DNA from: an uncultured Clostridia bacterium | GTDB lineage: Bacteria; Bacillota; Clostridia; TANB77; CAG-508 | Assembly (NCBI GenBank): GCA_946529215.1 | Contig: CAMMZC010000008.1 | Coordinates: 17,656-81,655, forward strand | Direction: 5' to 3' | DNA: 64,000 bases | In this document: positions 1 to 20,216 of the stretch, piece by piece | How the letters are laid out: each line of letters starts with the position of its first letter | Position numbering within the stretch: the stretch's first letter is position 1 | Position numbers and translations under genes: made by a program | The notes under the pieces: generated by a model | Seen by the model: only the letters and a program-made list of their open reading frames with translations | The model's database searches: none | What the model was told of the DNA's origin: nothing

Positions 1-3000
1 TCCTTTTATTTCTGCTCTACTTACAATCTCCATATCGTCATCTTGATTTGACAATATTCTTTGTGCAACTATTTTTACATTATCTGATGTTGGATGTCTA
101 GCATCTCTATTTGTAATTTTGTTTGTAAACAAAGGAGTCCATTTTGTCAAATCCAATTCTTCTGCCTTTGCATTTTTCTCATCTTCAGTAACTATAGTTT
201 TTGTGCCTTTTGATACTATTCTATCTTTATCTGATTTTTCTGCTACATAAGTTAATGTTTCGTCTAAATAGTCTTTTACATCTGTTGGAGTTAACGTTAC
301 TTCTTTGTTTTCATCTTTTTCTCCAAACCAATAGTATCTATTATTATAGTAATTTATATCAGATTTGTTTGTAATTTTCACTTCATAGGTTAGTTCTAAG
401 TTTGTTCCATATAAACTCTCTTCTTGTACTTCTGCTTTTACATAAGTACTTCCTCCGTTTTTCTTATTATCTAAATCACTTAATGCTACTACTCCTTGGC
501 TTGCCACTGTTTCTGGATTTCCATTGTATAATACATTTCCTTGTGTGTTTGTTAACTTAACATTTGTAATTAATTTTTGAATTTCAGCATCTTGTTTTGG
601 AACCTCTACTATACCAAAGCTTAATCCATTAAAGGTATTTTCTGCTTTAATTGTATTCAAATATTTAGCATAAATAGTTTCTTTAGAATCTTTACTGTCT
701 GATAATGTTACCTGAGATGAGTTACTGTTTGTATTTTTTGGCATATCGAAAATTTTATCAGCATTATTTTCTACTGTTATAGACATCTTAGCTGTACTTG
801 CCATTACATCTGATTTTCCTTCTGCTGATTCATTTGCAATCTTTCTAGTATTTAAATTATCTAGTGCTACAGAAGCTTTAATATTTTCATCCATATCTCT
901 ATACCACTCTTCTTCAGTTCCTCCATTTAATGCTGCTTTTGCATTTACTTCTTTTACTACAGTTGATTTATAGTTTTTACCAACTATCGTTTTTATTTCT
1001 TTTCCACTAGTATCGCAAATCTTTTGTGTTCCATCACCATAAGTAAACCTTAAGAAATATCTTCCTGGAACTACTCCGACTAAATTGTAGTTTCCTCCTT
1101 TATCTGTATTAATAGCATCATTTGTAGCTTTTGGTTTATTAGTTGCATCTTTTGGGTACCTTATTGCTGGATTTAATTTTTTAATATTTTCAGCTGATAG
1201 CTGTCTTAAATCTGTAACTCCAGTTGGTACTTCGATTAAATCAACTTTAATATTCTCAACTTTATTTTCATTGCTATCATATACACCATTTCCAAGTTTT
1301 TGACCATCTTTTGTTACTATTTCATCTTCAAATACCATACCTTTAATTGTTCTTTCTTTATCTTTATGTTCTCTAAATATTAAGTATGGTGCAGCACTTG
1401 ACCTTATATCATTTTGTGTTAAGTGTAGTTGGTTATTTGCCGAAATATTTAAGTCCCAACTATAATCTTTTCTTGTGTATTCATGGTATCCATTAGATTC
1501 TACTTCGGTTGGATATTCCTCTATAATTCCATTTGGATTTTCTAGTATTTTCTTTATTGCATCATCTTTTACTCTGAATTCTATAAATGATGTAATGGTA
1601 TTATTTTTTCCTATTCCATCTTTATACTTATCTAAGTTATATGTTGCAACTTTTACATCTTTTCCATTTCTGGTTGTATCTGCACCTTCACTCCAGTCAT
1701 CAAAATCTTTTGTAATTTCATTATTATTCTTCAAATCATATACTTTCTCTAAAACATATCTATTTCCATCATAATAATTTTTCAAGCTTGATATTCTAAG
1801 TTTGTTTTCTTCATACAATTCTGGTATATTGTAAACTGTTGTATTTGTTATATCTATTCTATATACAACAAATACCTTTATTTTCTTATTTACATCAGTT
1901 TGAGCTACACTATATGCAATATCTGATGGATAAATATCTGCAGTATATCCCGAAATAGTTCCCACTTTTTGCCAATTAGTTGTAGGAGCTATAACCATAC
2001 TATTATCTCCTAATTGTCCATAGTTATATGTAAATGTAAATCCATTTATATCAATTTTTGCATAAGCTAAGTTTTGACTTACGCTATAATTTGCCTGAGG
2101 AATTTTTTTAATTCCTAAATTAATATTACTATATATTAAATTTTTTTCATCGAAAGTTCCACACTTCTTAATTCCATAGGTATTTATTGCATTTTGTCCT
2201 GTGTATGTTGTTGCAATTCCAGTTAAATCTATGTCTTTTGGTGCAACATTTTTCATCATAGCTTTTGATCCATTTCTAGCTGTTGCATTAAATGCTACTG
2301 GTATATAGTTACTATATTGATATTCATTACCATTTTCATCTTTATATGTAGTCTTAAACATATCTAATTCACTATAATCAAATTCAACATAATATTTTTC
2401 TAACTCCGAATACTTTATACGAGAATCAAACACATATTTTACATCATTTGAGTCCTCTTCTTTAAATGTAGATGTTTCAAATGTTTTTCCATTCTCTTTA
2501 TTTATAAGTCTTACAGTTATTCCTTCAACTTTTGTCTCTCTTGAATCATATAAGCTATTATATTCTTGACTTTTTGCAGTTGGTGTATCTATCCATACAT
2601 AGCCTTCTATTGATACTTTCTTAACATTGGTAATAGTAACATTTTGATCATATTTTGAATCTTCTGATGATATTGTTACTTCTTTTTTTGTATCTACATA
2701 TCCCCTATTAGCATTATATCCTTCCTGGTGCTTTAATAGATATCCTGTAGGTGGTTCAACTTCATAAAAATGATATGTGCTATCATCTAATCCATCTATC
2801 TTTAGACCATTTGCCTTTGAGTAGCTTACATTGTCTGTCGCTGAATACACATTATTAAATCTATATATAGTTGCAGTATCATAAGAAGCATTATATTTAT
2901 ATGTTGTCGCTTTTGTTCCTTGTAGCCATCCATTTGATGTTTTTATCTTAAAGCCTGCACCTTCTATACTTTGTCTAGTCTCCTCATCAATTTTTTTAAT

Positions 3001-5172
3001 AGTTATTGAACCTTTTCTTAAGTTTTCATAATCTTCCACAGGGTCTCTATCTGAATCTGAAATTGTTACTTCTATAGATTCTTCTTGTACTTCTAGTATA
3101 TATCCTGGTGGTGGTGTAACTTCTTCTATAGTATATGTTCCATAATATAACCCATCTATTTTCAATTTTCCTTTAGCATCGGTTGAGTATATTTTAGCTC
3201 TACTTTTATTACTATTATAACTATTTACACCTGTTAACCAACCTTTTCCTTGTTTATAAATTTTAAATTGACTTCCTTTAAGAGTCATTCCTGTTTCTGA
3301 ATCTTTTTTTATAACACTTAGACTTCCTGTTGGAGTATTGTAAAATACCATCGCTGATGCCTTTGGATTAGATTCGCTTATTGTTCTGCTTTGTGTAGTT
3401 GAAGTTCTTAGATATCTTGATGGTGCCTCTACTTCTTCTGCTGTATATGTTCCCTCTTTTAAACCTTTTAAAGTTAATTTTCCTTTAGTTGTTGTATATT
3501 TTCCTTTGCTTCCTGCAGCTTCTTTTGTAGCATTATTATATTTATAGTCTCCTTCTTTTCCACTTAAATAACCTTCATTTGTTTTTATCATAAATACTGC
3601 TTCATCACTTGTAATAAATTTTCGAGTTTCTCCATCTTTTTTGTGAATAGTTATACTAAAATCTTCAGACTCTGTTTCCTCATCAGGTGGTGGTGGTGGA
3701 TTATCTGGGGTGTTGTAAAATACTACTGTTGAAGGATTTGGCTTTGATGTACTTATAGTCGCAGATTTAGTTTTTGTTGATATTTTATATCCTGTTGGTG
3801 CTTGTACCTCTTCTATTGTATATTTACCCATTACTTGTAATTCTGATAAAGTTATTTTTCCTCCAGATGTTGAATAATTAGTACCACTTGCATGATTATA
3901 ATTATATGATCCAGCACTACCACTTAAGTATTTTCCAGTTGGTGTTTTTATTTTAAATTTTGCTACACCACTTATTAAACTTTTAGTTTTTGAATCTTTT
4001 TTGTTAATTTTTATACTACCATATTTATAATTTATTGTTACATTAGCCTCTGTTGGTACAACCTTATCTTTTACAGTAATAAGCTTTTGGCAAACAGTAG
4101 ACTTGGATTTTGTTAATTTTTCTCCTCCCAAATAACCTGTACTTTCTAGTAACCAAAGTTCAACCTGATATGTATTACTTTTCACATGAAAGTTTACACT
4201 TTTTATTGTCTTACCAGAAATATTTTTTATGTAAAAACTTGTTCCATCTTTTGGAATATTTTCAAGCCCATATATTTTACTTGCATTTGTGTAACTACTA
4301 TCTTTATAAAATCCTATTTTGTTAGACGGTATAGTAGTTCCATCTGCAGCAGTAACTACTACAGAGTCTATCGTTCCTGTATATGTAAGACTTATTGCTG
4401 GATTTACATCAGAAACATTTCTTTCTGTTGCACTTATAGCAGCTTTTTTATACTTTGAATAATTCTTTTTTGCATCTGCTACTGCATTGTTTCCATCAGT
4501 TTCATATTTATATTTTTTTTCTTTAAAAGAATTAAATTTCCACGCACCAGCACTCATAACGCCCTTTTTTCCCATTCTTGTTAACCATGTATTCCAATAT
4601 TTTTTCAAAGCTAATTGTCTTGGTCCATCCATTTCACCGTTTTGGTGATTCGTACCAACCTGTGTTGATGATTTAGTCCAGTTAGACCATTTACACTCTC
4701 CACTATCTATTGAATTAGCCAGTATATATGCTAAAATAGCATTCTCTTCACAATTATAAGTTGCTCCTCCAGAAGCTCCCTCATTTTTTGATGTACAATA
4801 ATCATGTTCAACCATTTCTGTACCATTAATTTTAAAATAATGTTTAACTCTCATATCTGATACAACATTACTAGCCTCATGTTGAACACAATATGTATTA
4901 TGATTTTCATAACCCATATTTACTACACCTGCAAGTGATTGTTCTGCTGTAGTATAATTTGTTCCTAGTAGTTTATTTATTTTATTTCTAATACTTGAAT
5001 TGCCTAAATCATCCCAATCTGCTAATATAACAACATTCGCAGCATTATTACTCTTTATCAATTCTGTATGTCCTTTTAATCTTCTAGTAGCTGCATATAC
5101 TTTTGTTCCATAAGTTAAGAAAACAAGAATTATAATTATAATTGCCAATATTTTCTTTCTAATTTTTGTCAT
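1..5172 (-). CDS. Giant surface adhesin, partial. The N-terminus is in the window and the C-terminus runs off the window start. It has a signal peptide, an N-terminal Cys-containing domain (candidate thioester domain) and many Cna-B-type (isopeptide-type) repeat domains. It is a paralog of the 10183..14730 gene.
   Basis: ATG at complement 5170-5172. The N-terminus MTKIRKKILAIIIIILVFLTYGTKVYAA is a signal peptide. I translated it by hand as ...HNTYCVQHEASNVV...RQLALKKYWNTWL.... No minus-strand stop occurs before position 1, since no minus-strand ORF is listed in the track. Downstream there are recurrent 'G(K)YxΦxEVxAPxGY' Cna-B motifs. It lies 14 bp after the stop of the 5187..9845 gene, so it is co-transcribed. 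Confidence 0.7.
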   Translation of the reverse strand, partial: MTKIRKKILAIIIIILVFLTYGTKVYAATRRLKGHTELIKSNNAANVVILADWDDLGNSSIRNKINKLLGTNYTTAEQSLAGVVNMGYENHNTYCVQHEASNVVSDMRVKHYFKINGTEMVEHDYCTSKNEGASGGATYNCEENAILAYILANSIDSGECKWSNWTKSSTQVGTNHQNGEMDGPRQLALKKYWNTWLTRMGKKGVMSAGAWKFNSFKEKKYKYETDGNNAVADAKKNYSKYKKAAISATERNVSDVNPAISLTYTGTIDSVVVTAADGTTIPSNKIGFYKDSSYTNASKIYGLENIPKDGTSFYIKNISGKTIKSVNFHVKSNTYQVELWLLESTGYLGGEKLTKSKSTVCQKLITVKDKVVPTEANVTINYKYGSIKINKKDSKTKSLISGVAKFKIKTPTGKYLSGSAGSYNYNHASGTNYSTSGGKITLSELQVMGKYTIEEVQAPTGYKISTKTKSATISTSKPNPSTVVFYNTPDNPPPPPDEETESEDFSITIHKKDGETRKFITSDEAVFMIKTNEGYLSGKEGDYKYNNATKEAAGSKGKYTTTKGKLTLKGLKEGTYTAEEVEAPSRYLRTSTTQSRTISESNPKASAMVFYNTPTGSLSVIKKDSETGMTLKGSQFKIYKQGKGWLTGVNSYNSNKSRAKIYSTDAKGKLKIDGLYYGTYTIEEVTPPPGYILEVQEESIEVTISDSDRDPVEDYENLRKGSITIKKIDEETRQSIEGAGFKIKTSNGWLQGTKATTYKYNASYDTATIYRFNNVYSATDNVSYSKANGLKIDGLDDSTYHFYEVEPPTGYLLKHQEGYNANRGYVDTKKEVTISSEDSKYDQNVTITNVKKVSIEGYVWIDTPTAKSQEYNSLYDSRETKVEGITVRLINKENGKTFETSTFKEEDSNDVKYVFDSRIKYSELEKYYVEFDYSELDMFKTTYKDENGNEYQYSNYIPVAFNATARNGSKAMMKNVAPKDIDLTGIATTYTGQNAINTYGIKKCGTFDEKNLIYSNINLGIKKIPQANYSVSQNLAYAKIDINGFTFTYNYGQLGDNSMVIAPTTNWQKVGTISGYTADIYPSDIAYSVAQTDVNKKIKVFVVYRIDITNTTVYNIPELYEENKLRISSLKNYYDGNRYVLEKVYDLKNNNEITKDFDDWSEGADTTRNGKDVKVATYNLDKYKDGIGKNNTITSFIEFRVKDDAIKKILENPNGIIEEYPTEVESNGYHEYTRKDYSWDLNISANNQLHLTQNDIRSSAAPYLIFREHKDKERTIKGMVFEDEIVTKDGQKLGNGVYDSNENKVENIKVDLIEVPTGVTDLRQLSAENIKKLNPAIRYPKDATNKPKATNDAINTDKGGNYNLVGVVPGRYFLRFTYGDGTQKICDTSGKEIKTIVGKNYKSTVVKEVNAKAALNGGTEEEWYRDMDENIKASVALDNLNTRKIANESAEGKSDVMASTAKMSITVENNADKIFDMPKNTNSNSSQVTLSDSKDSKETIYAKYLNTIKAENTFNGLSFGIVEVPKQDAEIQKLITNVKLTNTQGNVLYNGNPETVASQGVVALSDLDNKKNGGSTYVKAEVQEESLYGTNLELTYEVKITNKSDINYYNNRYYWFGEKDENKEVTLTPTDVKDYLDETLTYVAEKSDKDRIVSKGTKTIVTEDEKNAKAEELDLTKWTPLFTNKITNRDARHPTSDNVKIVAQRILSNQDDDMEIVSRAEIKG

Positions 5173-5186
5173 CTTTTTTCCTCCTT

Positions 5187-8100
5187 TCAGTCAAATTTTT
5201 TCCTAATTACTTTTTTCACAATACTATAAACAAGTGTTGTCATAATTACTGCTATAATTAATGTTATAATTGAAAATTTAACTGCTATACCTGTACTAAC
5301 ACTTATAATTAAATCTGCTTGTGATACATCATCATCTTGACTTGAACCCTCATCTTTTACTCCTAACTCATTATAATATTCAGTTATTTCTGCTTTATTA
5401 TTTGTAAGTCCTGTATTTGAATTTGTCATTGTTTTTGTAAGAATTAGAGTTATTTCTTTTGTTTCTCCTGGTTCTATTTTTGTATTAGCTAAGCTTTCTG
5501 TATAAAGTTTATTTCCTGATTGATACCAATCTTTATTAAGCTTAGAGTTAAATTTTAAATCTGATGGTTTATTGTCAACAATTTTTTTCGCATATCCTGC
5601 TAATTCACCATTATTTGTTACTTTTATTTTATATTCAACCATTACAACTGAACCTTTTAAATATTTACCTCTTATCTCAACCTTTGCCAAATTTGTATCT
5701 GAGAATTCTGTTGTTTTGTTTTCTCCTGAATTAGAAACACTAACTTTAGAAATAGTCTTAGATAAATTCAAATCAAACTTTTTGTATTCTACTAATCCTA
5801 TATCTATATTTGTTATATTTTCTTCATTTACAGTAATTGTGTCTGTTGAAGCAACTTTTTTACTTGCATTATTTATATTCATTGTAATAATTTCTACATC
5901 TGAATTGTTATTTTCACTTGTTCCATCAGCTTTATATGTAGTGATACTATATCTTTGATTATCATATTCAAATAATACTACATATTTTCCACTTTCTATA
6001 TTTGTAAAACTATATAATCCATTACTATCTGTTGTTGTACTTGTTATTTCTGAATTTGTTTCTATATTGTATAATGTAACTTTTACTCCATTTATTATCT
6101 CTTCATCAGATTCTCTTTGTCCATTTTGATTTCTATCTAACCAGGCTATACCTGAAATAGCTCCTTTATTTGTATTGTTATTTTCACCTTGTTGATTTGA
6201 TGTATCATCTTTATTGTCTGTTTTCTGATTATCTTCGTCTTGCGAATTGTCACCTGGATTATCTTGACCTGGATTATCTTGACCTGGATTGTCTTCACCT
6301 GGATTGTCTTCACCTGGATTTTCTTCACCTGGATTTTCTTCATCTGGATTATCATCTTCTGGATATATTGGCGCTTTCAAATAATATGTTATTTTTCCAC
6401 TTGATGCAAGCAAAATATCGTCATAAGCATCTGCTTCATTTATTACTTCAAAGTCTTCTAATAATGAAAGCTCTTTTACTTTGCCTTTTATTATTATATT
6501 TTTTTCTTCTTCTGCTTTCAAATTACAATTTATCTCCAATAAATTATAATTATCTGCTTCCTCTCCTCCTGTTAAATTGTATTCACAATCTTTTCCATCT
6601 ATAGTAACTGATTGTAAATCTAAATATTTTGAATACTTATCTTTTAAAATCAAATCATTAGAATCTGAATCTCCAATATTTTTTATTTTTATTGTATATA
6701 TTATTTCATCACCTAAATTAATTGTACTTTTATCATTTTTATTACCAATTAATTCTAATGAAGCTCTTATACCACTTACTTCGTTTGACACTTTGTTTGA
6801 TCTATATTGAACATTATCTGAATCTTTTATAGTACACATTGCTTCTGCATAATTTATTCCATTTATAGAATCTTTTATTTTTATTTCATATTCAACATAA
6901 GCTTCATTATTTGCCTGTATAGAAGGTATTGTAAAATACAATTCATCTGTTTCTACTTCTTGTCTTGGTTCATTTGAAGTATATACTATAGATTTTTTCT
7001 CCATCAAATCATTTATATTTAAATTAACTTGTACATTTTTTTTCTCTTCATTTGTATTATTCTTAATATAAAGCTGATAAATATATGTATATCCATAACT
7101 TACTTTATCATCATCTTTCATATATGCTAAATTTAAATTTGCTTCTAATGCTGCTGGTTCTATTTTGTTTTTTAATGCAAAGTTTTTACTATTGCTACCA
7201 TATCTAATTGTATAGTCTGATTCTATTTCTTGTGTTAGGTTTACATCAGAATTTACTTTTACCATATATTTGTATTCATATGTTTTTCCTGCATTTATGT
7301 TTATTCCATTTTTTTCTAAAGTTCTTTCTGTTTTCGTAACAAAATACTCTTCATCTGTTGTGTAAACATGTTTTTCTTCATCATAAGCTGGATATTTTGA
7401 ATTTACTTCAATTAATGTTGTATTATTTGGAATTGTTGCACTTAAAGATACGTTTTCTATATTTTGAGTACTTGGATTTTGTAATTTTACAGTATAAACT
7501 ATTATCTCTCCTGCTTTTACAGTATCTCCTTCTGATATTGTTTGTCCTCCAACACTTGCAGTAACTTCATATTTTAATTCCGTATTCGAAGTCTGCTCAG
7601 TTCCGCTTCCTGTTTCTGTTCCTTGATTTTCTCCTTGTCCTTCGCTACCTGTTTCTGTTCCTTGATTTTCTCCTTGTCCTTCGCTACCTGTTTCTGTTCC
7701 TTGATTTTCTCCTTGTCCTTCGCTACCTGTTCCTGTTCCTTGATTTTCTCCTTGTCCTTCGCTTCCTGTATTTCCTCCTTGTGTTTGTGCTGCAGAAATT
7801 TGAATCTTTACTTTTTCTGTTCCATTATCTGTATATTTTGTAGCATTTTCATTTGTATATGTCATAACTATTTCTTCTTCGGTGTTTTGTGCATTTTGAT
7901 CAATTTCTACATTTGTATTTATAGAAATTGTTGTTCCCTGTATTGCTTCTCCTAAATAATTTGTTTGTTCTCCTGTTAATTTTATACTTAGTACTTTTTG
8001 TCCGTTTTCTTCTATAACTTTATAATTTTCATCTGTTAATTGTAATCCATTTGGTTGAAATAATTGTGGTTTTTGTACATAAGTTACATTTTTAACTTGA

Positions 8101-9929: not shown

Positions 9930-9958
9930 ATATTACAACCATATTTTTTTAAAGTCAA
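9930..9958 (-). promoter_or_regulatory. Sigma-A-type promoter for the 5187..9845 gene. On the minus strand it reads TTGACT-17 nt-TAATAT.
   Basis: Reverse complement of 9921-9960 is tattgactttaaaaaaatatggttgtaatattaaaatgta. It lies about 85 nt upstream of the ATG at 9845 and downstream of the terminator at 10142-10177. Confidence 0.45.
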
Positions 9959-10141
9959 TATAGCGTTTTTTATAGCATTTAGAATATACTCAAATTCTTT
10001 TTACGGAAATAGCTTTGTAACTTTTTTGTTTATTTTATTTACATTTTCTTTACATTTTTGTAACAAAGCAATTATATATTTCTCTTTTTATTTAGGGAGA
10101 GTTGAACTTTAATAGGAAAATTTCGATTTTTCCTATACAAT

Positions 10142-10177
10142 AAAAAAAGTTGAACGATAATTCGTTCAACTTTTTTT
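10142..10177. terminator. Bidirectional rho-independent terminator. It is a perfect 8-bp GC-containing stem (gttgaacg/cgttcaac) with a 6-nt loop, flanked by A7 and T7. It ends the 10183..14730 transcript.
   Basis: aaaaaaagttgaacgataattcgttcaactttttttatt read directly. The stop codon of the upstream minus-strand gene is at 10183-10185. Confidence 0.8.
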
Positions 10178-10182
10178 ATTTA

Positions 10183-13100
10183 TTACTTAACAGCGTATTT
10201 CTTTATTACAACAACTCCTGCTGACAACATAGCAAGTGCTACTACTCCTGCAACTGTGTATATAATAATCATTTGTCTATCAGCACCTGTTGGTGGTACT
10301 ATAGTCATTCTTGCTTGAGTCAATTCTTCACTTGGTATTGTAGGTTTAATTATTAAAACTTGTTCATTATTATCTGAGCTATTTCCTGTTCCGTTTGTAA
10401 CTTTAATTAATCTTGCACGGTTTAATAATTCTAAATCCTCATCTGTTTGAGGTATAATTCTATGTGCAACAATTGTTGCTGAATCTGAAGTTTTAACATT
10501 ATTATTAGCTCTTGCAGTATTTTTTTCTGTATATAGCTTTGAATTCCAATTGTTTAATTTAATTACTGTTGTTTTTGCTAATTCATCATCTTGTGATAAA
10601 TTGCTATCTGTTACTACTTCAAATTGTAACTTAGATGATTTTTCTTGATCAAATTGTAATGTCTCATCTAAATAGTCTACTAGCTCATTTACAACTAATG
10701 TAACTTCTTTATTAGGATCTGCTTCACCAAAGTAATAATATTCATTATTGTAGTAGTTAACATCTGAAATATTTGTTACTTTAATTGCATATGTCAATTC
10801 TAAAGTAGAACCATAAATTAATTCATCTAATAATTCTGCTCTTACATATGAACTTCCACCATTTATATTGTTCATATCTCCTAAGTCACTTACACCTTGT
10901 AATTTGTCAGTTTCTGGATTTCCATTAATCTCTAAGTTGTTTTGTGTATTTGTTAATTTTATGTTCGTTATTATTTTTTCTAATTTAGCTTCTTGTTTTG
11001 GCATTTCAATGATACCTAAATTTAGTCCTTCAAATTTGTTTAATGCTAATGTTTCGTTTAGATATTCTACTTTAACATTTGCTGTATTATTTCCATCTGA
11101 TATTTCTTGTTGAGCTTGTGTTTGGGCTCCCTTAAGTTCAGTAGAGTTATTAGGACTATTTTCTACTGTTATAGCTAATTTTGCTGTTCCTGCCATTATA
11201 TTTTGTAAAGTTCCACTGTTTACAGCAATTCTAGTATTTAAGTTATCTACTGCAACAGAACTATTTACATCACCAAGTAGTCTGTACCATGAATCGTTTC
11301 CGTTTTTTAGTCCATTTTTTGCACTTTCATTTTTAACTATAGTTGATTTATAATTTTTTATGTCTATTTCTGTACCATCTATTTTAGAAATCCATTCTTT
11401 ATTTATTGTATTTCCTTCTAGGTCCTTAATTTCTTGTTTTCCATTACCATAAGTAAATCTTAAGAAATAATATCCTGGTACAACTCCGCCAAATGTATAT
11501 TCTCCTTTTTCATCAGTAACTGCCATTGCTGTACTTATTACAGCTTTTTTAGTATTATTTGCTGTATTTATTACTCTATATAATTGAGATACATTTAACT
11601 TATTAATATCATTTACTGATAAAGTATTAATATTTGCAATATTTCCTGATATATCAAGCAATTCTACTTTTACCCCTGAAACAGCTTTTTCTCCATTATC
11701 ATAAACACCATTTCCAAGTTTTTGTCCATCATTTGTTACTACTCTATCTTCAAATACTCTACCTGAAATAACTCTTTCTTCTCCTAATCTAAAGATTAAG
11801 TATGGTGCACTTGAACTTCTAGATTCTTCTATTGTTTGATGTTGCTGATTTGCTTTTAATATTGTTTTTCCTTCCCAACTATAATCATTTCTAGTATATT
11901 TATGATATCCTATACTATTAACTGTTGTTGGATATTTTTCTATAATTCCATTTGGATGTTCTAATATATCATCTATAGCTTTGCGATTAACACTAAAGTT
12001 AATTTTTACTGTAGCTGTTTTATTTACTCCAATATCTGCAATTGGTTTGTTATATTGTGCAGTATTATTTCCTTCTGCTTTCCAATTTCCATCGTTTAAT
12101 GTATATCTATTATTATCAAAAGTATTTGTTAGTTTAGAAATATGTAATGCATTTTCCTTGTATAAATTTGCATCATTAATTACATTTGTATTTGTTATAT
12201 CTATTCTATATCCTACATCTACTTTTAATTCTTCATTACTATTGTTGCTCTTATATACTATCTCTGATGGATAAATATTTGCTGTATATCCTCTAATTGA
12301 TCCAACTTTTTGCCAATTAACTGTTGGTGCTGCAACTTTACTTGTATCACCTTGCATACCATATCTATATGTGTAGTCAAATCCTCTAATATTTATTTTT
12401 ACATACTCTAGGTTTTCAGATAAGCTATAGTTTGCCTTTGGAATTTCTTTAATTCCTAAGTTAATATTATTTAAAACTGCTCCTTCCATAAGCTTATTGA
12501 AAAGATTTCCAGATAAACCATAGGTTGTTTCATCTTTTGTTCCTTTATATGTTGTTGCAATTCCTTTTAAGTCTACGTCTTTTACTGCTACATTATCCAT
12601 TATTGCTCTTGAACCATTTTTTACTATTTGGTTAGCAATTGCTGAATTAAATGCTACTGGAATATATTTTATATATTTATGTTCTTTTCCTTGTGCATCT
12701 TTATATGTTTCTTTTAAACTGTTTAGACCACTATAGTCAAATTCTACATAATAATCTTTTAATTGTGATTGACTAATTAGTTTATCAAATATATATTCAC
12801 CATTTGCATTTGTTAACACATAATCTTTATTTCCAACTTTAATCGCTTTCTTTGTCTTCTTGTCTTTTAATCTTACTTTAACTCCTGCAACCCTTGATTT
12901 AGCTTCTAGACTTGGGTCATATAAACTGTTATATGTGTCACTTTTAACTGTTTTTTGGTCAATCCATACATAACCTTTAATTGATATTTTTTGTTGGTTA
13001 TTGTATTGTTTTGTAACATTCGTATTTTTTGAATTTATAACTGCTGTTCCAAAATCTACCCAATTATTCTTTTTGTCATATCCTTGTTGTGCTGATAAAT

Positions 13101-14730
13101 CATATCCATTTGGAGGTGTTACCTCATAAACTCTATATGTTCCATATTTTAAATTTTTTAAAGTTATTGTAGATGGATATACTTGTGCATTTTTAAAGCT
13201 ATTTTTATAATTATATGCTCCATTTTTTCCACTTAGCCATCCTTCTGATGTTTTAATTTTAAATCCTGCTGAAATTTCTTTTTTAGTATCTCTATCTACT
13301 TTTCTTATTGTTAAATTTCCAACTGTTTTTTTGTTTTTATATGTTTTTGTAACACTTGTTGTTTTTAAACTTACAGTAGCTGTTCCAAAGTATACACCTT
13401 TTTTATTTTTCTCTCCTGGTATAGATTTATATCCATTTTGAGCAGATAAATCATATCCATCTTGACTTATCACTTCCCAAATTTTATATTTACCAAATTT
13501 TAAGTCCCATAATGTAATTGCTCTATAACCACGAGGTACTATTTTACCATTATTTATAAGTATACTTTTTGAATTATCAACAGTATAATATGTCTCTCCT
13601 TTACCAAAAGAATTGTTATATGTATAATGTCCATTATTTCCACTTAACCATCCTTCTGATGTTTGAATTTTAAATCCTGCTATTAATCCAGTTTTAGTAT
13701 TTTTGCTATCTACTTTTTGAATTGTTAAATTCCCATTACTTTTTACATTAAATTTAACTGATTTATTTTGTCTTGTTTCTCCTGGCTTAATAAGTATAAT
13801 ACCTTGACCATGTCCTTTTCCACCATTTCCAGACCAAAAGTCATTTTTAGCTAAAAATAGAATTCTTGCACTTAATACACTTGAGCTAGCATTAACTGTA
13901 ACATTTTTAATTTTTGTTCCATCTGTAACTTTTATATAAAAATTACTATTACTTTTAATTTTTGATATTTGTTTTGTACAAGCTTTATCTGAATATATTC
14001 TTATTTTGTTACCTGCAATTGTTCCATTAACTCCTGTAACAGTTAAAGATACACTATCACCTGTAACTTTTGCTTTAAAAGGTCCATAAGTATTTGCTGC
14101 ATATTCGCTTACTTCTTTTGCACCTGTGATTTCAGCACTAGCTTCTCCTGTTGAATTATTTGAAAAATTTATAGCTTCTTGACGTAGTTTTTTTGCTGCC
14201 TCTTTTGCTTCTTTTTCTTGATGTGAAAAATAATTGTCAATACTGTATTTGTTTTTTTCATTTTTCCAATTATTTTTTAGGAATCCATCACCAAGTGCAT
14301 TTAACCATGTATTCTTATATGACCAAATTGCGATATTTCTTGATGACATTTTATTGCTTCCATCTTTTAAATACATTTCCCTTCTATAATTACCTTTAAA
14401 TAATATATAGTTCATAATTACATTTGCTTTTTTAACAACAGTTTTTCCTGTTCCAATACTTTTAGCAGTTCTTCCATTTATTTCTATTATATCAGTAACT
14501 TTATATTGTCCTCCAGAAAATCCAGTTTTATGTTCAAAACAGAAAGTATCATTTCTTCCTCTTGAAAATCCTCCATTTAATTGAACTATATCACCAATTT
14601 TACCATAATCTTTTATAGTATCTGCTTGATTTAATCCATAAGTTGTTGCATTTACTTCACTAGCAAATAATACTATAGTTGTAAGTATTGTAATAATAAT
14701 ACTTAAAATAAAACTTTTTTTAGTTTTCAT
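10183..14730 (-). CDS. Giant (1515 aa) surface adhesin with a signal peptide, an N-terminal Cys-containing domain (candidate thioester domain), tandem Cna-B-type repeat domains, and a C-terminus 'VPPTG' + TM + KKYAVK.
   Basis: Signal peptide MKTKKSFILSIIITILTTIVLFASEVNA. Motif TFCFEH. Repeated '...GKYKIWEVISQDGYDLSAQNGY' and 'GTYRVYEVTPPNGYDLSAQQGY' Cna-B-type motifs. Hydrophobic C-terminal anchor with a basic tail. Paralog of the partial gene at 1..5172. Confidence 0.8.
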   Translation of the reverse strand: MKTKKSFILSIIITILTTIVLFASEVNATTYGLNQADTIKDYGKIGDIVQLNGGFSRGRNDTFCFEHKTGFSGGQYKVTDIIEINGRTAKSIGTGKTVVKKANVIMNYILFKGNYRREMYLKDGSNKMSSRNIAIWSYKNTWLNALGDGFLKNNWKNEKNKYSIDNYFSHQEKEAKEAAKKLRQEAINFSNNSTGEASAEITGAKEVSEYAANTYGPFKAKVTGDSVSLTVTGVNGTIAGNKIRIYSDKACTKQISKIKSNSNFYIKVTDGTKIKNVTVNASSSVLSARILFLAKNDFWSGNGGKGHGQGIILIKPGETRQNKSVKFNVKSNGNLTIQKVDSKNTKTGLIAGFKIQTSEGWLSGNNGHYTYNNSFGKGETYYTVDNSKSILINNGKIVPRGYRAITLWDLKFGKYKIWEVISQDGYDLSAQNGYKSIPGEKNKKGVYFGTATVSLKTTSVTKTYKNKKTVGNLTIRKVDRDTKKEISAGFKIKTSEGWLSGKNGAYNYKNSFKNAQVYPSTITLKNLKYGTYRVYEVTPPNGYDLSAQQGYDKKNNWVDFGTAVINSKNTNVTKQYNNQQKISIKGYVWIDQKTVKSDTYNSLYDPSLEAKSRVAGVKVRLKDKKTKKAIKVGNKDYVLTNANGEYIFDKLISQSQLKDYYVEFDYSGLNSLKETYKDAQGKEHKYIKYIPVAFNSAIANQIVKNGSRAIMDNVAVKDVDLKGIATTYKGTKDETTYGLSGNLFNKLMEGAVLNNINLGIKEIPKANYSLSENLEYVKINIRGFDYTYRYGMQGDTSKVAAPTVNWQKVGSIRGYTANIYPSEIVYKSNNSNEELKVDVGYRIDITNTNVINDANLYKENALHISKLTNTFDNNRYTLNDGNWKAEGNNTAQYNKPIADIGVNKTATVKINFSVNRKAIDDILEHPNGIIEKYPTTVNSIGYHKYTRNDYSWEGKTILKANQQHQTIEESRSSSAPYLIFRLGEERVISGRVFEDRVVTNDGQKLGNGVYDNGEKAVSGVKVELLDISGNIANINTLSVNDINKLNVSQLYRVINTANNTKKAVISTAMAVTDEKGEYTFGGVVPGYYFLRFTYGNGKQEIKDLEGNTINKEWISKIDGTEIDIKNYKSTIVKNESAKNGLKNGNDSWYRLLGDVNSSVAVDNLNTRIAVNSGTLQNIMAGTAKLAITVENSPNNSTELKGAQTQAQQEISDGNNTANVKVEYLNETLALNKFEGLNLGIIEMPKQEAKLEKIITNIKLTNTQNNLEINGNPETDKLQGVSDLGDMNNINGGSSYVRAELLDELIYGSTLELTYAIKVTNISDVNYYNNEYYYFGEADPNKEVTLVVNELVDYLDETLQFDQEKSSKLQFEVVTDSNLSQDDELAKTTVIKLNNWNSKLYTEKNTARANNNVKTSDSATIVAHRIIPQTDEDLELLNRARLIKVTNGTGNSSDNNEQVLIIKPTIPSEELTQARMTIVPPTGADRQMIIIYTVAGVVALAMLSAGVVVIKKYAVK

Positions 14731-14750
14731 TTAAAATCCTCCCTTCACTC

Positions 14751-17700
14751 TTATATTTCAATTTTTTCTATTAGTAACTTTTTATTTATTAAATATGCTA
14801 GTCCGCAGATAATTATTATAACAGTTAATGTTAATGTAACATAACTTACTGCTGTACCTGTTTTTACACCTATTATTGCATCTGCTGATCCTGCATTTAC
14901 TGTATCTTGGTTATTTTTATCTGTTGTGGTATTTGGTATTCCAAAGCTGTTATAAGCTGCTTCAATTTCTGCTTTGTTGTTTGTAAGTCCTGTATTAGAT
15001 TCTGTCATTTTCTTTGTTAGAGTTAATGTAACTTCTTCTGTCTCTCCTGGCTCTATTATTGTATCTGCAAGACTTGACGTGTATACATTGTTTCCTTTTT
15101 TATACCAATCACTATTAATAGCTGAATTAAACATTAATGATGATGGCAAATAGTCAACTATTGATTTTGCATATCCTGCAACTTCTCCAACATTTGTAAC
15201 TTTTAATTTATATTCTATTACAACATTTGAATCACTTAATTCTTTTGATGGAATTTCTACCTTAGCTAAGTTTTGGTCTTCATAGTCGTAAGTCTTTGAG
15301 CCATTTTTATTTGTTATAATTATCTTACTTATTGTCTTTTCAAGTTTTAGACTGAACGTTTTAGCTTCTGTAAGTCCTAAATCTATGTCTATTACATCTT
15401 GTGTAAGGTTTATGCTATCTGTAAATGCTGCGGTTATTTCTTGATCATTTATCATTCTTGAAGCTTTGACTGCATCTGAATTTATTGATTCATCTATTCC
15501 ATCTGCTTTATATGATGTAACCATATATTTATCTGTGTCATATTCAAATGTAACTATATATTTTCCTTTTGAAAGATTTGATAATTCATAAGTTCCGTCA
15601 CTGCCTGTTGTAGTTGTTATCTCCTCATTTTCATATGTTGCTATTTTATTTGTAACTACATTAATTGCATATACTTTTATTCCTTCTAATAATTCTTCTT
15701 CATCATCTCTTAAACCATCATTATTTTCGTCTTTCCATACTGTTCCTGTAATTGTATATGTTTCTGTGTTTTGATCTCCATAATCAATATCATCTGAATC
15801 ATCTACATTTGGTTCATCCGAATCATCATCTTGCTGATCATCTATATCATCTGAAATATCATCTTGATCAACTTCTTCATCTTTTTCTTCTTCTATTTTT
15901 ATATAGTATTCATTTGTATTTGTTTCATCTACCAGTCCTATATTTCCATATACTAATACTTTGTTTCTTAATTTTAGTATACCTGTTTCTAATGGTAGGT
16001 TGTCTGAAACTTTTGTAGTTATTTGAAGAGTATATTCTTCTGATTGTTTTATACCTAAGTTTTCTATTACAACAATACTATATTCATTATCATCTTCAAA
16101 ATATGGTTCTATTTCATATTCTGTTTCTGCATATTGTTTTCCATTAAGAGTAACTGATTCAATTTCTAGATAATCAGAAATCATTGTTTCTATTCTTAAA
16201 TTATCTGAATCTACATTTCCAATATTTTTTATTTTTGCTATATATGTAATCGTATCTCCTGATTGAACATATCTATCTGTATTTTTAGATGTAGTTGTAG
16301 TAGACAATTGTACTTTTATTTTTTCCGTACTTACATTATCTGTAACTAAATTAGATCTATACACTGAATTATTTTTATCTTTTGCTTCCAATCCTATTTG
16401 TGCATATGTTAATGTTTCTGTAGGTTGTTTTATTGTTGTTTGTAGTTTTATTGTAGCTTTGTCCTTTGGCTTTATAGATTTTATTGTAAATGTCTTTGTA
16501 TTACTTGGAACTTCTTCTGTAGTCTCTCCAGAATGATATTCTATACTATCTATTGAAATTAGATCATTTTCTTTAATTGTTATCTGTATATCTTTTTGTT
16601 CAGAATTTGATATATTATTTACATCTGCAAAATATAAACATCTTTGTCCGTTTTCAAGCTCAGTAACTATATCTCTTCCTACAGGAATAATATTTATTGT
16701 TAATGTAGCAGGTACAAATTTATTTGAAAATTCTTGAGTTTTCGTTTCTCCTTCTACTACTGTAACAGATAATTTTGTAGATTCTGTTTTTATTTCTGTT
16801 AAGTTTTCTTTTACTTTTACCTTATATTTTAAAATTATATATTCGTTTTCATTTAAACTAACATTACTTTTTGTAAGAACAGTATCTGCTTTTTCAATAT
16901 AATATGGTTCATCATATGTATAGTCTCCTGATTCTTCATTTACCCCTGGATATTTTGGGTTAATATCTAATAAAATTGTATTTTCTGGTATAGTTGCTTT
17001 AATTGTTGCGTTTTCCATCTTTTGACTTCCCGAATTTGAAACCTTAACTGTATATTCTATTATTTCTCCCGCTTTTACTTCATCACCTTGTTTTATTTCT
17101 GTTCCTTGAACTTTTGCTGTTAAACTGGTCGTTATTTCTGCTACTTTTCCTGTAAATAGAACTATTTTTGTAGATTCTGCTTGCTTTTGGGTAGTACTTA
17201 AGTTGTTTGTATATGAAACTTTGTAGAAAGTTTCTGTACTTAGATTATATGGTAAATTCTTTGCAATATTTATGTCATAACTAAAGTTTATTTTCGCACC
17301 ATTTGCAAGTGAATTAATTACTATTAAATAGTATTTAGAATCTTTTGTGGCATCTTCTTTCCAATTGTTTTCTGCTTTGCTAATACTTGTTGTAGGATTT
17401 TCTACAGATGTATAATAAACTTTAGCATTTTCCATATTTGTTCTTATTTTACTTGTTCTTTCTATTTTTCCACTTATATTTGCTATTTTTCCAAGTATTG
17501 CTATATTTGATATATCTGTTTCTTCATTATTTACTACTTGCATTTTTACTGTTGCATTTTTAGCTTCTGCATTACTACTAAGTTTAATTTCTTTGTCAGT
17601 TTCTTTTCCAAGTGTTGTAATATTATATTCTTCTATATTGTTTGTTAATATCATTGAATTTTGTGCTACTATATTAATATTAACTTTTTGCTCTCCTTTA

Positions 17701-19700
17701 TCTGCAAAGCTAGTAGCATTTTCGTTTGTATATGTCATAACAATTTCTTCTAAACTATTAGTTGCCATCTTATCTAGTCCAACATTTGCAGTTATATTTA
17801 GTGTTGCACCTTTTACAGCATCACCCTGATAATTTTTTTGTTCTCCTGTTAAATTAATTGTTATAACTTCTTGTCCGTTTTCTTGATTTATTTTAAAATT
17901 ACCTTTTTCTAAGTTTAGACCATTTCCATACATTAAACTACATTTTGCATATATTTTATTTATTTGTTTTGGTAATTTAATTTTTACAACTGGATTTTTA
18001 AATAAATCTCTATATTCACTATCTGTCTCTAATACTGCTGTTATGTGCATTTCTTGTTCTGCTGATGTTGTAAGTGTAATTGGTTCTACTTTTAAACTTG
18101 CTCTTGATTCTGTTTCTTTTAAAGTTATTGTAGAATTTGATGTTGCTGTATTTGTCAAACCATCATTTTTTGTATATGTTACTTTATTTGAATCTTTTAT
18201 TTTAGTTAATTCTTTTATCTCTGTTCTTTTATAATTAGTCTTTTCTATTGTTTTTGTTACTTCATATTTTAAAACTCCATTATTTACAGGTTTTGATGTT
18301 TCTATATTTAACACTTTTGCACCTGATTCAAGAGCAACTATTATATTTCCACTTTCATCTGTTTCATTTGTGTTTGTAATTGTTTTAATATTACTTGCTT
18401 GATCTTGTATGCTTATATTCCATTGACTTCCCAACACATTTTCAATATTTGCTTTGTTAAATTTAATGTTTTTGTATATGACTGATAATTCTTTTTCTTC
18501 TTCGCCTTTTAGTGCTTTTGACTCTTGTTCTAATATCTCAAGTTTTTGTAATACACTTGCATAATCTATATTAACTTCTGTTTTTGTTATATACTCTTTT
18601 TGCTCTCCAGCATATATTTTTCCTTTTGCTATTTCTGATTGAGTTTCTTTTTCTGTTATAGTCGCAAAATTTTCTTTATTTTCTGAAATAGTCGTTTCTA
18701 CACTTTTAGATAATACTTTATCATTATATGTATAGATTGAAGAATTGGCAGTAATTTTTGAATTTGTAATTTCGACTGTTTCTGGATATTTTAATGTAAC
18801 TACAAATTCATCACTTGCATTTTTTTGCCATACTATTTTGTTATTTTGACCATTTGCAACTCTTATAATTAACTTCCCATCTTTATATTCATAATTTGAT
18901 GATAAAAATTCTTTATCTCCATTTGTTGAAGCTGTTGTCCTTTTATGTACTGTAACAGTTTCAGCTTCTGCTGGAATATTTAATTCTATATTTGTATCTC
19001 TTACAGGATAAGAATTATTTTCTATTTTACTTTTAACTAAAAGTTGAACTATTTTTTTGTTTGTTCCATCTTCATTATATGTAGCATTTGTTAATACTTC
19101 TGCACTTAATACTGAATTTATATTTTCAGGATATGTCCAATTTAAGTTAAGCTCAGCTTTGCCTTTTATTTGTGCACTATTTTTACTATTAACATAGTTT
19201 CCTGTTAAATTGATTATAGATGTTCTTGATAAATAGTCTATATCGAATTCTTGCAAATTAGTAAATTCTATTCCAACTTCTACTGTTTTTATATCACCAT
19301 CATTTATTTGTTTAAAAGTCAGTGATTTTTCATCAATGTTACTAATATATTCACTTTTTGTATCTGTTTTAAATTTAAAATTTGCATTCTCATCTAATTC
19401 TATTTTTGCATTAGATAAATATCCATCTTTCTTAACACCTAACTCAAATGTAACTTTTAAATCTTGTTTGTCTATCGCAGCTGTAGTATTTAGTGTTTTG
19501 TTGTTTGCAAAATATGCTTTAAATTCGATATTTTGATTATTTACTTCTGCTGTATCAATAGCATAGCTTATCGAACTTGACCCAATTTGAGCCATCTGAA
19601 TTAAGTTTGAGCCAACCATACTTAAATCTGCCATAGTAATCGTAAAGATAGACGCTATTGCACAAGTTTTTTGAATAATTCTTCTTCCTGTGGTGTTCAT
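14751..19700 (-). CDS. Giant (1649 aa) cell-surface protein and paralog of the 5187..9845 gene. It has DUF11-type modules, an SdrD-B/Cna-B-like domain and an acidic low-complexity linker. The C-terminus is 'GVKTGTAV' + TM + KK.
   Basis: The N-terminal region is homologous to the 5187..9845 product (IEFKAYFANNK... versus VQFRAYFKNGEE...). DUF11-like motif ITYIAKIKNIGNVDSDNLRIETMISDYLEIESV. Region 'WKDENNDGLRDDEEE...GTYEL..GKYIV'. RBS AAGGGAGGAAAAG. There is 20 bp to the next gene. Confidence 0.8.
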   Translation of the reverse strand: MNTTGRRIIQKTCAIASIFTITMADLSMVGSNLIQMAQIGSSSISYAIDTAEVNNQNIEFKAYFANNKTLNTTAAIDKQDLKVTFELGVKKDGYLSNAKIELDENANFKFKTDTKSEYISNIDEKSLTFKQINDGDIKTVEVGIEFTNLQEFDIDYLSRTSIINLTGNYVNSKNSAQIKGKAELNLNWTYPENINSVLSAEVLTNATYNEDGTNKKIVQLLVKSKIENNSYPVRDTNIELNIPAEAETVTVHKRTTASTNGDKEFLSSNYEYKDGKLIIRVANGQNNKIVWQKNASDEFVVTLKYPETVEITNSKITANSSIYTYNDKVLSKSVETTISENKENFATITEKETQSEIAKGKIYAGEQKEYITKTEVNIDYASVLQKLEILEQESKALKGEEEKELSVIYKNIKFNKANIENVLGSQWNISIQDQASNIKTITNTNETDESGNIIVALESGAKVLNIETSKPVNNGVLKYEVTKTIEKTNYKRTEIKELTKIKDSNKVTYTKNDGLTNTATSNSTITLKETESRASLKVEPITLTTSAEQEMHITAVLETDSEYRDLFKNPVVKIKLPKQINKIYAKCSLMYGNGLNLEKGNFKINQENGQEVITINLTGEQKNYQGDAVKGATLNITANVGLDKMATNSLEEIVMTYTNENATSFADKGEQKVNINIVAQNSMILTNNIEEYNITTLGKETDKEIKLSSNAEAKNATVKMQVVNNEETDISNIAILGKIANISGKIERTSKIRTNMENAKVYYTSVENPTTSISKAENNWKEDATKDSKYYLIVINSLANGAKINFSYDINIAKNLPYNLSTETFYKVSYTNNLSTTQKQAESTKIVLFTGKVAEITTSLTAKVQGTEIKQGDEVKAGEIIEYTVKVSNSGSQKMENATIKATIPENTILLDINPKYPGVNEESGDYTYDEPYYIEKADTVLTKSNVSLNENEYIILKYKVKVKENLTEIKTESTKLSVTVVEGETKTQEFSNKFVPATLTINIIPVGRDIVTELENGQRCLYFADVNNISNSEQKDIQITIKENDLISIDSIEYHSGETTEEVPSNTKTFTIKSIKPKDKATIKLQTTIKQPTETLTYAQIGLEAKDKNNSVYRSNLVTDNVSTEKIKVQLSTTTTSKNTDRYVQSGDTITYIAKIKNIGNVDSDNLRIETMISDYLEIESVTLNGKQYAETEYEIEPYFEDDNEYSIVVIENLGIKQSEEYTLQITTKVSDNLPLETGILKLRNKVLVYGNIGLVDETNTNEYYIKIEEEKDEEVDQDDISDDIDDQQDDDSDEPNVDDSDDIDYGDQNTETYTITGTVWKDENNDGLRDDEEELLEGIKVYAINVVTNKIATYENEEITTTTGSDGTYELSNLSKGKYIVTFEYDTDKYMVTSYKADGIDESINSDAVKASRMINDQEITAAFTDSINLTQDVIDIDLGLTEAKTFSLKLEKTISKIIITNKNGSKTYDYEDQNLAKVEIPSKELSDSNVVIEYKLKVTNVGEVAGYAKSIVDYLPSSLMFNSAINSDWYKKGNNVYTSSLADTIIEPGETEEVTLTLTKKMTESNTGLTNNKAEIEAAYNSFGIPNTTTDKNNQDTVNAGSADAIIGVKTGTAVSYVTLTLTVIIIICGLAYLINKKLLIEKIEI

Positions 19701-19753
19701 ACTTTTCCTCCCTTTAAAGTGTATATTTATTATTTCAAAATATGTCTGTTCTT

Positions 19754-19782
19754 ATTATAATTAAACATTTTTTTGTTGTCAA
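19754..19782 (-). promoter_or_regulatory. Near-consensus sigma-A promoter for the 14751..19700 / 10183..14730 operon. On the minus strand it reads TTGACA-17 nt-TATAAT.
   Basis: Reverse complement of 19741-19800 is ...tatattgacaacaaaaaaatgtttaattataataagaac.... It lies about 55 nt upstream of the ATG at 19700. Confidence 0.55.
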
Positions 19783-20196: not shown

Positions 20197-20216
20197 CAAA
20201 AAAGGAAGGATAAAAA

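Follow-up and report, generated by a model that had tools for sequence, protein, structure and literature searches.

A tandem module of paired giant surface proteins, probably a fibre and a thioester-type adhesin, in uncultured gut Clostridia

Two tandem units and their operon signals

At one end of a 64,000-nucleotide (64-kb) stretch of DNA from an uncultured Clostridia bacterium (contig CAMMZC010000008.1, positions 17,656 to 81,655; hereafter the window), four giant genes follow one another on the minus strand. They form two units, each consisting of a fibre gene, A, and an adhesin gene, B; unit 1 is A1-B1 and unit 2 is A2-B2. These names anticipate an interpretation that is held here with fair rather than full confidence, namely that the locus is a duplicated operon of paired giant surface proteins, one a fibre (A) and the other a TIE-type adhesin (B), in a lineage of gut Clostridia.

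A1 (14751..19700, minus strand) encodes a fibre protein of 1649 amino acids (aa), delineated by its open reading frame (ORF), by Pfam and NCBIfam matches, by an AlphaFold 2 model and by its homologs. B1 (10183..14730, minus strand; defined by its ORF) encodes the putative TIE-type adhesin, of 1515 aa. A2 (5187..9845, minus strand; ORF, Pfam/NCBIfam, BLASTP), of 1552 aa, is a paralog of A1 with the same architecture, and B2 (1..5172, minus strand), a paralog of B1, is cut by the window edge, which leaves 1724 of its 1798 aa inside. The exact A2 protein was matched on a 65-kb metagenome scaffold (ENA ERZ28612970, scaffold_909), from which B2 was completed; on the source contig this gene, whose completion the first-pass annotation of the window had proposed, encodes 1798 aa. 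The ORF scan agrees with that annotation on four co-oriented genes in which two unrelated architectures alternate.

A1 and A2 align in two blocks, with 38% identity, over nearly their full length (BLASTP, E 6e-140 and 7e-118). B1 and B2 share 43% identity over 1174 aa (E 0), with 30% over the N-terminal ~540 aa (E 1e-27). A and B show no BLASTP match to one another at E<=1e-3, and self-BLAST found no internal repeats. Since the blocks are extensive and internal repeats are absent, the paralogy is real and does not reduce to shared low-complexity sequence, the alternative that had been raised when it was first proposed.

Within each unit, B follows A almost at once. The A1-B1 junction (14731..14750, minus strand) measures 20 nt, contains a GGAGG ribosome-binding site and leaves no room for a promoter or a terminator; the A2-B2 junction (5173..5186, minus strand) measures 14 nt and contains AGGAGG, so that the spacing of 14-20 bp originally given is confirmed. 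The two units are separated by a bidirectional intrinsic terminator (10139..10180, no strand assigned; previously placed at 10142-10177) with a 19-pair stem, a 4-nt loop and flanking runs of A and T. A consensus promoter had been claimed for each unit. This holds for unit 1, where TTGACA-17-TATAAT (19754..19782, minus strand) matches the consensus at 12/12 positions. The site of unit 2, TTGACT-17-TAATAT (9930..9958, minus strand), reads TAATAT and not TAAAAT; it is weaker (9/12) and does not figure among the top matches of the promoter scan. Overall, promoter-like sites are not above chance in this AT-rich window (137 found vs 127 expected), whose GC content is low, at ~28% throughout.

Both units also carry an upstream direct repeat, ACAAAAATGTAA-TA-AAAATGTAAA for unit 1 (19839..19862, minus strand, 56 nt upstream of the −35 hexamer) and ACAAAAATGTAA-AG-AAAATGTAAA for unit 2 (10038..10061, minus strand, 79 nt upstream). 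The window contains just two copies of the 24-nt element ACAAAAATGTAA-NN-AAAATGTAAA, one per unit, where chance would predict none. In related loci (cited by number, L001 onwards; see below), 46 of 141 A genes are preceded, at a distance of 140-260 nt, by a tandem A[AT]TGTAA-N4-A[AT]TGTAA repeat with an 11-nt period whose orientation never varies, against a background rate of 72 in 15,890 windows; examples are L002:9860-9879 and L085:3156-3175 and 11875-11894. The upstream repeat is probably a binding site for a regulator common to both units. Scanned against Rfam, positions 9700-20300 gave no riboswitch or other leader element; a c-di-GMP riboswitch, the type that controls sortase substrates in Clostridioides difficile, is therefore not evident there.

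Architecture of the A and B proteins

In A1, a signal peptide (cleavage predicted after SYA) is followed by about five N-terminal β-sandwich domains, a variable CLIPPER/DUF11 middle and a C-terminal part that comprises SdrD_B, a CLIPPER-like domain and the sequence SADAIIGVKTG, then a transmembrane helix and KK. A2 ends in ADLIISVSTG, again with a transmembrane helix and KK. The family PF01345 (DUF11, now CLIPPER) is matched by A2 with E 4e-10 and 40.4 bits (cut-off 24.6) and by A1 with 18.5 bits, below the cut-off; TIGR01451 reaches 32.7 bits in A1 and 57.3 bits in A2 (cut-off 24). The CLIPPER matches fall in the middle of A, at about residues 870-1300, and SdrD_B is matched near the C-terminus (1.5e-13 and 9e-18); the first ~850 residues match no Pfam or NCBIfam domain. 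An AlphaFold 2 model of A1 residues 1-700 (pLDDT 88.8, pTM 0.74) is all-β, with about five sandwiches after a long signal peptide. In Foldseek it resembles generic sandwich arrays only (TM-score <=0.26), among them integrin alpha legs, antigen I/II C123 and the MG domains of alpha-2-macroglobulin and C5. No separate adhesive head domain is recognisable in this model or in its Foldseek matches.

Comparison of A1 with its ortholog in L006 gives 75-82% identity at the N-terminus, 79% at the C-terminus and 32-47% between them; the fast-evolving part of A is its middle, not its tip. Numerous alignment columns of Lys, Asn, Asp and Glu are kept throughout the family, including the near-invariant lysines K359, K483 and K1455. 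CLIPPER is an isopeptide-linked stalk domain of fibrillar adhesins, and by analogy the conserved columns would be compatible with CLIPPER-like isopeptide cross-links. A resembles known CLIPPER (DUF11)/SdrD_B fibrillar adhesins in these two domain types, in its signal peptide, in its long all-β stalk and in its C-terminal anchor. It differs from them in that no separate head can be recognised, the anchor motif lacks Pro, the N-terminal 700 aa are the conserved part and the CLIPPER middle the variable one, and B always lies downstream. A is a conserved all-β CLIPPER/SdrD_B fibre and most likely the obligate surface partner of B.

B1 consists of a signal peptide, a head with Cys64, Asn132 and the candidate Gln309, a stalk of CnaB, SpaA and SdrD_B domains, and VPPTG followed by a spacer, a transmembrane helix and KK. 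The head of B2 contains Cys95, Gln186 in a TQxx-like motif and Gln362 as the candidate bond-forming residue; four SpaA domains follow, and the C-terminus, past window base 1, has TPPTG, a transmembrane helix and KKK. The stalk matches PF17802 (SpaA, a prealbumin-like domain of CnaB type) with 3e-13 in B1 and 1.9e-37, in four stretches, in B2, and SdrD_B is matched as well. These Pfam and NCBIfam results agree with the domains originally assigned, DUF11 and SdrD-B in A and Cna-B-type repeats in B. The first ~470 residues of B match no Pfam or NCBIfam domain.

It is this N-terminal head that bears on function. In an alignment of 77 B heads (N-terminal 340 residues), mean identity is 12% and the sole invariant residue is a Cys, C64 in B1 and C95 in B2. 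Among 81 head sequences this Cys is present in 80, in the context [YF]C-x-x-H (TFC64FEH in B1, TYC95VQH in B2), with the His kept in 53. A Q-x-A-x-W motif follows ~70-90 residues after the Cys (Gln in 62/81, Trp in 53/81). At this TQxxPhiW-like position B1 reads RN132IAIW, with Asn, and B2 RQ186LALK, with no Trp at that column; the Asn132 codon occupies window positions 14333-14335, and Asn is also found in close relatives (P0121-P0124), whereas B2 and most of the family have Gln. A second Gln (G-Q309-G-I-I in B1, C-Q362-K-L-I in B2) is present in 67 of the 81 sequences, eight of the rest being gaps; in the B1 model its column follows a predicted sandwich at residues 198-295. We infer that this second Gln is the partner of the Cys in a thioester bond. 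The head alignment also keeps GPF and FY motifs, and K339, E419 and N442 are conserved in the domain after the head. B1 contains only two Cys in its 1515 aa.

Thioester domains (TEDs) carry their Cys in [YFL]C-Phi-zeta, a non-essential TQxxPhiW motif on helix 2 and the bond-forming Gln in Phi-Q-zeta-Phi-Phi (Miller et al., PMC6194298); in Class II TEDs, a β-sandwich is inserted before the Gln hairpin (PMC6194298). The motifs of the B head follow this order and the Class II layout. A model of the B1 head, built from a 6-sequence alignment, has the predicted order helix bundle, sandwich, hairpin, which also fits Class II; the β-barrel and three-helix bundle that define the TED fold are predicted, together with the sandwich insert. 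Foldseek returns four matches at E<=1e-3 for this model, all of them Class II TED structures, including 6fwv (BaTIE, 8.6e-6) and 6fwy (EfmTIE86, 1.5e-4).

Among all Pfam families, TED is the one matched by the largest number of head sequences, namely 7 of 77 (best E 9.4e-5), and as sequence matches these weak hits are not attributable to chance. An exhaustive HMMER search of 1.84 billion representatives with the head profile yielded only 87 clusters and no bridge to TEDs that Pfam recognises. The B1 head alone, used as a sequence query, returned only four fragments, and the 77-sequence head alignment returned nothing; phmmer searches of full-length A1 and B1 against the Protein Data Bank (PDB) gave no match. 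Against the L006 ortholog, the B1 head has 19-28% identity and the stalk ~60%; the head of B evolves faster than its stalk.

Taken together, we consider a Class II TED-like fold, and homology to this class, likely for the B head. Sequence motifs and a structural model together make B most plausibly an adhesin of TIE type, whose head, Class II-like but very divergent, is predicted to form a thioester bond. This reading would accord with the earlier guess that B is a covalent-binding adhesin, which the conserved Cys and Gln, the Foldseek matches and the Pfam TED matches in relatives all fit. B shares with Class II TIE proteins (BaTIE/BasC of Bacillus anthracis, 6fwv; EfmTIE86, 6fwy; SaTIE) an N-terminal head with Cys in [YFL]C-Phi-zeta, the three-helix bundle, inserted β-sandwich and Gln-bearing hairpin, a CnaB-type isopeptide stalk, a signal peptide and a C-terminal sorting signal. 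Unlike them, it is 3-4 times longer (1500-1800 aa vs ~560 for BaTIE), its head is too divergent for Pfam TED, it has [TV]PxTG in place of LPxTG and, in B1, Asn in the TQxxPhiW-like motif, and it is always found directly behind a conserved partner gene.

All four proteins have predicted Sec-type signal peptides. Complete B proteins end in [TVI]P[PSNT]TG (in a few cases PPFG), followed by 8-10 residues, a hydrophobic helix and KK; A proteins end in SAD-x-II-[GS][VI][KS]TG, a proline-less motif kept family-wide, with the helix directly after it and then KK. The first-pass annotation had stated that nothing in the window explains export or anchoring. This was right as regards neighbouring genes, since domain scans of the ORFs in the 64-kb window reveal no sortase, pilin or dedicated secretion gene. 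It does not extend to the proteins themselves: with signal peptides, C-terminal motifs, transmembrane helices and Lys/Arg tails in all four, the signals for export and anchoring reside in A and B. Sortase B (SrtB) of C. difficile cleaves (S/P)PxTG (PMC4155245), and both A and B have the layout of its substrates, with a motif, a hydrophobic segment and a basic tail. PPTG, PSTG and PNTG in B resemble SPKTG, PPKTG and SPSTG, although the first position in B is T, V or I and not S or P, and no linked sortase is seen; GVKTG and SVSTG in A resemble NVQTG of CbpA. The enzyme that fixes B to the cell wall is most likely a housekeeping sortase whose gene lies outside this locus; for A, other processing or retention in the membrane by its anchor may apply.

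Pairing, duplication and setting across relatives

The linkage of A and B was followed in related genomes from both sides. The A1 protein has 157 homologs in the protein collection, nearly all of 1600-1690 aa and all from metagenomes or from metagenome-assembled genomes labelled 'Clostridia bacterium'. A scan seeded with the A alignment, taking one genome per species, found 503 relatives, of which 77 loci were kept; a scan of metagenome contigs seeded with the B alignment gave 57 loci, and 139 loci were fetched in total. In the A-seeded loci, 73 of 88 complete A genes have a B gene recognisable by BLAST within 60 bp downstream, and the gap in these 73 pairs is typically 16-21 nt. After the other 15, the next ORF is B-like in each case, in that it begins with a signal peptide, has the Cys motif and, if complete, also has a TPxTG tail; these ORFs were missed by BLAST as split or too divergent. 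The B-seeded loci contain 51 B genes directly behind an A gene (<=30 bp) and no complete B behind an unrelated gene, the remainder being contig edges, pieces of split B genes or fusions. Across ~140 pairs overall, neither gene was found intact without its partner. The strict pairing seen in the window thus extends to other genomes, and regular separate occurrence of the two types, which would have spoken against it, is not observed from either side. Context look-ups in relatives with 53%, 37% and 28% A identity each show A and then a B-type gene.

The view that a two-gene operon was duplicated as a unit and has since diverged stands in part. Duplications copy the pair as a unit in every case, and a second unit directly follows the first in 32 of 65 related loci where this could be judged; L002, one of the looked-up relatives, repeats the layout A-B-A-B. 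The event does not belong to this genome, however. A1 and A2 are closer to their L002 counterparts (55% and 46%) than to each other (39%), and since each clusters with the counterpart in its own position, the duplication predates this genome. A recent duplication was rejected on these grounds and because about half of the related loci have two units. Other clades seem, from their sequences, to have duplicated the module independently.

Five contigs have A and B of the second unit fused in frame, as one ORF of 2940-2957 aa (L099:8404-17262, L100:12850-21681, L103:13914-22736, L108:4250-13123 and L129:13914-22736). The junction reads ...SADILISVSTG-LYRNT-LIIILIGGGVYLLI-RVIRKYNKK-FPTIMMMIMATVLIGTTVSNA-GW..., so that the STG motif, transmembrane helix and KK tail of A run in frame into the signal peptide of B. 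A sixth contig, L107, has TAG at the junction where the five have TAT. The topology predicted for the fusion (out, in, out) is self-consistent, and processing by signal peptidase, and at STG if cleavage occurs there, would yield A and B as separate proteins again. As a separate line of evidence, the fusion found in nature speaks for a fixed 1:1 relationship of A and B.

The second B gene is split in one species, represented by six contigs. The head ORF, of 480 aa, and the stalk ORF share 11 nt (head ORFs at L104:11166-12608, L105:15523-16965, L109:16039-17481, L113:19014-20456, L115:2027-3469 and L118:3745-5187); the frameshift lies inside the first CnaB strand, and GGAGG stands just before the second ATG. 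A similar arrangement occurs at L005:14898-16118, where a 406-aa head ORF is followed by a stalk ORF of 1509 aa. Decay to a pseudogene, recoding or a genuine division into two genes could each explain the split B.

The locus is chromosomal, as the rest of the window consists of housekeeping genes, including nrdD/G, tuf, fusA, rpsG/L, ftsH, dnaB and leuS. On the upstream side of A1 lie three small orphan ORFs on the opposite strand, then minC, a PBP2-type transpeptidase gene, mreD, mreC, mreB and radC. The orphan ORFs (20040-20192, 50 aa; 20217-20645, 142 aa; 20791-21135, 114 aa; all on the plus strand) lie between minC and A1 and point away from A1. ORFs of similar size occupy this position in L002 and L003; in the window, the three show no convincing Pfam or NCBIfam family, the sole match being a weak one of the 50-aa ORF to YlbD_coat. 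The arrangement radC-mreBCD-PBP2-minC, three small ORFs and A-B is kept in two of the three looked-up relatives, down to 28% A identity. An origin as a mobile element or conjugation adhesin was rejected, because the module occupies a fixed housekeeping site. Beyond B2, the scaffold continues with genes for a WG-repeat membrane protein, an aminotransferase, an M48 peptidase and LemA. A membrane protein of ~506 aa with WG-containing β repeats also recurs downstream of the module in distant relatives, sometimes after spoIIE (L001:20240-21760, which is just past window base 1; L003:23144-24673; L005:3374-4897).

All A-bearing loci of relatives (77 loci) come from uncultured Clostridia, including 'Clostridium sp. 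CAG:343' and 'CAG:354'; the GTDB genus CAG-354 belongs to order TANB77, family CAG-508. A Tad-pilin cluster has been reported for TANB77, and this is a locus different from the A-B module. Elsewhere in the window, 37945-41886 (minus strand) encodes another large surface or secreted protein, a secreted subtilase (Peptidase_S8) of 1313 aa with Kelch repeats and a C-terminal fn3 domain. An ORF of 1011 aa (48157-51192, minus strand) has a Glu/Lys-rich, highly charged, coiled-coil-like N-terminus, no signal peptide and no Pfam or NCBIfam match. Two further orphan ORFs on the minus strand adjoin genes of the str operon: one of 153 aa (43469-43930) between tuf and fusA, with no family match, and one of 165 aa (47616-48113) upstream of rpsL, with an internal duplication and likewise no family match.

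A working model and its alternatives

The order within a unit would be upstream direct repeat, σ70-type promoter, A, ribosome-binding site, B and terminator. With this shared layout, and with the ribosome-binding site of B within the 14-20 nt after the A stop codon, A and B are expected from one mRNA in near-fixed proportion. Sec signal peptides would export both proteins, and the C-terminal motif, transmembrane helix and basic tail would hold them at the surface. There, the long CnaB/SpaA/SdrD_B stalk, probably cross-linked by isopeptide bonds, would present the fast-evolving B head. Between its Cys and Gln the head would make a thioester, open to attack by a nucleophile of the target, so that B would become covalently bound; host mucus or epithelium, or a different cell, could serve as target. 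A would be displayed alongside, with B supplying covalent and variable target binding. From synteny, translational coupling, unit-wise duplication and the fusions, we infer that A and B cooperate physically.

Several observations weigh against this model. Neither B1 nor B2 matches Pfam TED (PF08341) or the TQXA/NCBIfam TED models at E<=0.01, and for this reason the domain is termed a divergent TED-like head and not a member of the curated family. A profile of the 77 head sequences finds no TED among PDB sequences, and none of six distant members of the head family matches Pfam TED. The B1 model has a pLDDT of 69, falling below 50 around the candidate Gln (residues 298-309), and the TM-scores of its Foldseek matches are low (0.17-0.27). 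B1 and its close relatives have Asn in the position of the TQxxPhiW Gln; the domain could still work with Asn there, as the Gln is reportedly dispensable. With regard to anchoring, no sortase (by SrtA similarity or as an ORF of TLxTC type) was found within ~10 kb of the module in 139 loci, nor in the window, and NVQTG of CbpA, the nearest known analogue of the A motif, is not cleaved by C. difficile SrtB in vitro (PMC4155245).

Alternatives differ chiefly in how A and B are related. They might be independent adhesins that are adjacent only through a common promoter or regulator, which we consider improbable, if the most plausible of the rivals. Each protein does have its own signal peptide, stalk and anchor, similarity between A and B or evidence of their interaction is absent, co-regulated adhesin genes often cluster, and the conserved upstream repeat could account for co-regulation without interaction. 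Yet A-then-B order and 16-21 nt spacing persist down to 28% A identity, and ~140 unbroken pairs, duplication by units and in-frame fusions would be unusual for mere co-regulation. A tighter association is conceivable in a minimal heterodimeric pilus assembled by sortase, with the Thr of the B TPxTG motif joined to a Lys of A, so that B forms the tip and A the stalk, fixed to the wall or membrane via its VKTG signal. The near-invariant A lysines K359, K483 and K1455 would suit such a linkage, as would C-terminal motifs that differ between A and B but are strictly conserved within each class, as in pilus subunits handled by different sortases, and the 1:1 coupling and fusions agree with subunits in constant proportion. 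A dedicated class C sortase is nearly always part of Gram-positive pilus clusters, however, and no sortase-like ORF, TLxTC motif or SrtA similarity lies within ~10 kb in the 139 loci or in the window. Nor is a small basal pilin present, and A and B are already ~1500 aa long, each with its own stalk. The same holds against Streptococcus pyogenes Cpa, a TED tip adhesin on the T-pilus: the A-B locus lacks a pilus-specific sortase, and A and B are giant multi-domain fibres whereas pilins are of 30-60 kDa. A pilus of this kind is thus unlikely, and the 'stalk plus tip' arrangement that the first-pass annotation had offered as an option is not favoured, because no module-linked sortase was found in the 139 loci.

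Two further rivals concern the chemistry of the head and the role of the pair as a whole. The head Cys might belong to a Cys-His peptidase, a transglutaminase-like site, a disulfide or a metal site instead of a thioester. The YCxxH consensus, with its His in 53 of 81 sequences, would suit this, as would the lack of a Pfam TED match in the window's B proteins, the 87 clusters that stay unlinked to the TED family by sequence and the modest quality of the B1 model. Against it, all four significant Foldseek matches are Class II TEDs and none is a peptidase; the order helix bundle, sandwich, hairpin comes with a second conserved Gln at the expected place, Pfam TED is the family most often matched among head members, and TIE proteins as a rule combine an N-terminal head, a CnaB stalk and a sorting signal, as B does. 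We regard a non-thioester role as slightly more doubtful than the pilus. Least likely of all is a structural role in the envelope, as a fibrous coat or a stand-in for an S-layer, linked to sporulation or cell shape. The fixed site beside mreBCD, PBP2 and minC, with spoIIE or the WG-repeat gene on the other side, the consensus promoter of unit 1, the conserved core of A and the large investment of ~20 kb by relatives with chromosomes of ~1.5 Mb (L022) are in its favour; but SLH, CWB2 or other S-layer anchoring domains were not found in A or B, the hypervariable B head and A middle fit external ligands or immune pressure, and the housekeeping neighbourhood may be simple synteny.

The fibre-plus-adhesin pair therefore remains the preferred reading. 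It also has a more far-reaching version, which we put on a par with the pilus and hence think unlikely: A and B as an obligate 1:1 two-chain organelle specific to TANB77-like gut Clostridia, in which the N-terminal sandwich domains of A, its conserved body, dock on, shield or covalently partner the hypervariable B head. If this were true, the reactivity of B would be gated until contact with the target, and tandem units would provide alternative target specificities. Two bacterial genes would then reproduce the logic of complement and alpha-2-macroglobulin proteins, with their 'MG-domain scaffold plus thioester warhead'.

TIE adhesins, CLIPPER stalks and non-canonical clostridial sorting motifs are already known. 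What is new here is an obligate two-gene module confined to an uncultured gut clade, a divergent TED lineage missed by current Pfam models, and, in addition, the unit-wise duplication, the in-frame fusion and the conserved upstream repeat; no report of a TIE adhesin tied to a conserved partner gene was found in a literature search that was not systematic. The TANB77-related clade currently attracts clinical interest (PMC11680825). In at least one carrier (L022) the chromosome measures ~1.5 Mb, of which two ~10-kb units take up over 1%; so large a share suggests that the system plays an important part at the interface with the host or with particles. With a linkage that spans ~140 gene pairs from many uncultured species, the A-B system offers a testable case of partner-dependent covalent adhesion and a pair of non-canonical sorting motifs for the study of the enzymes that process them.

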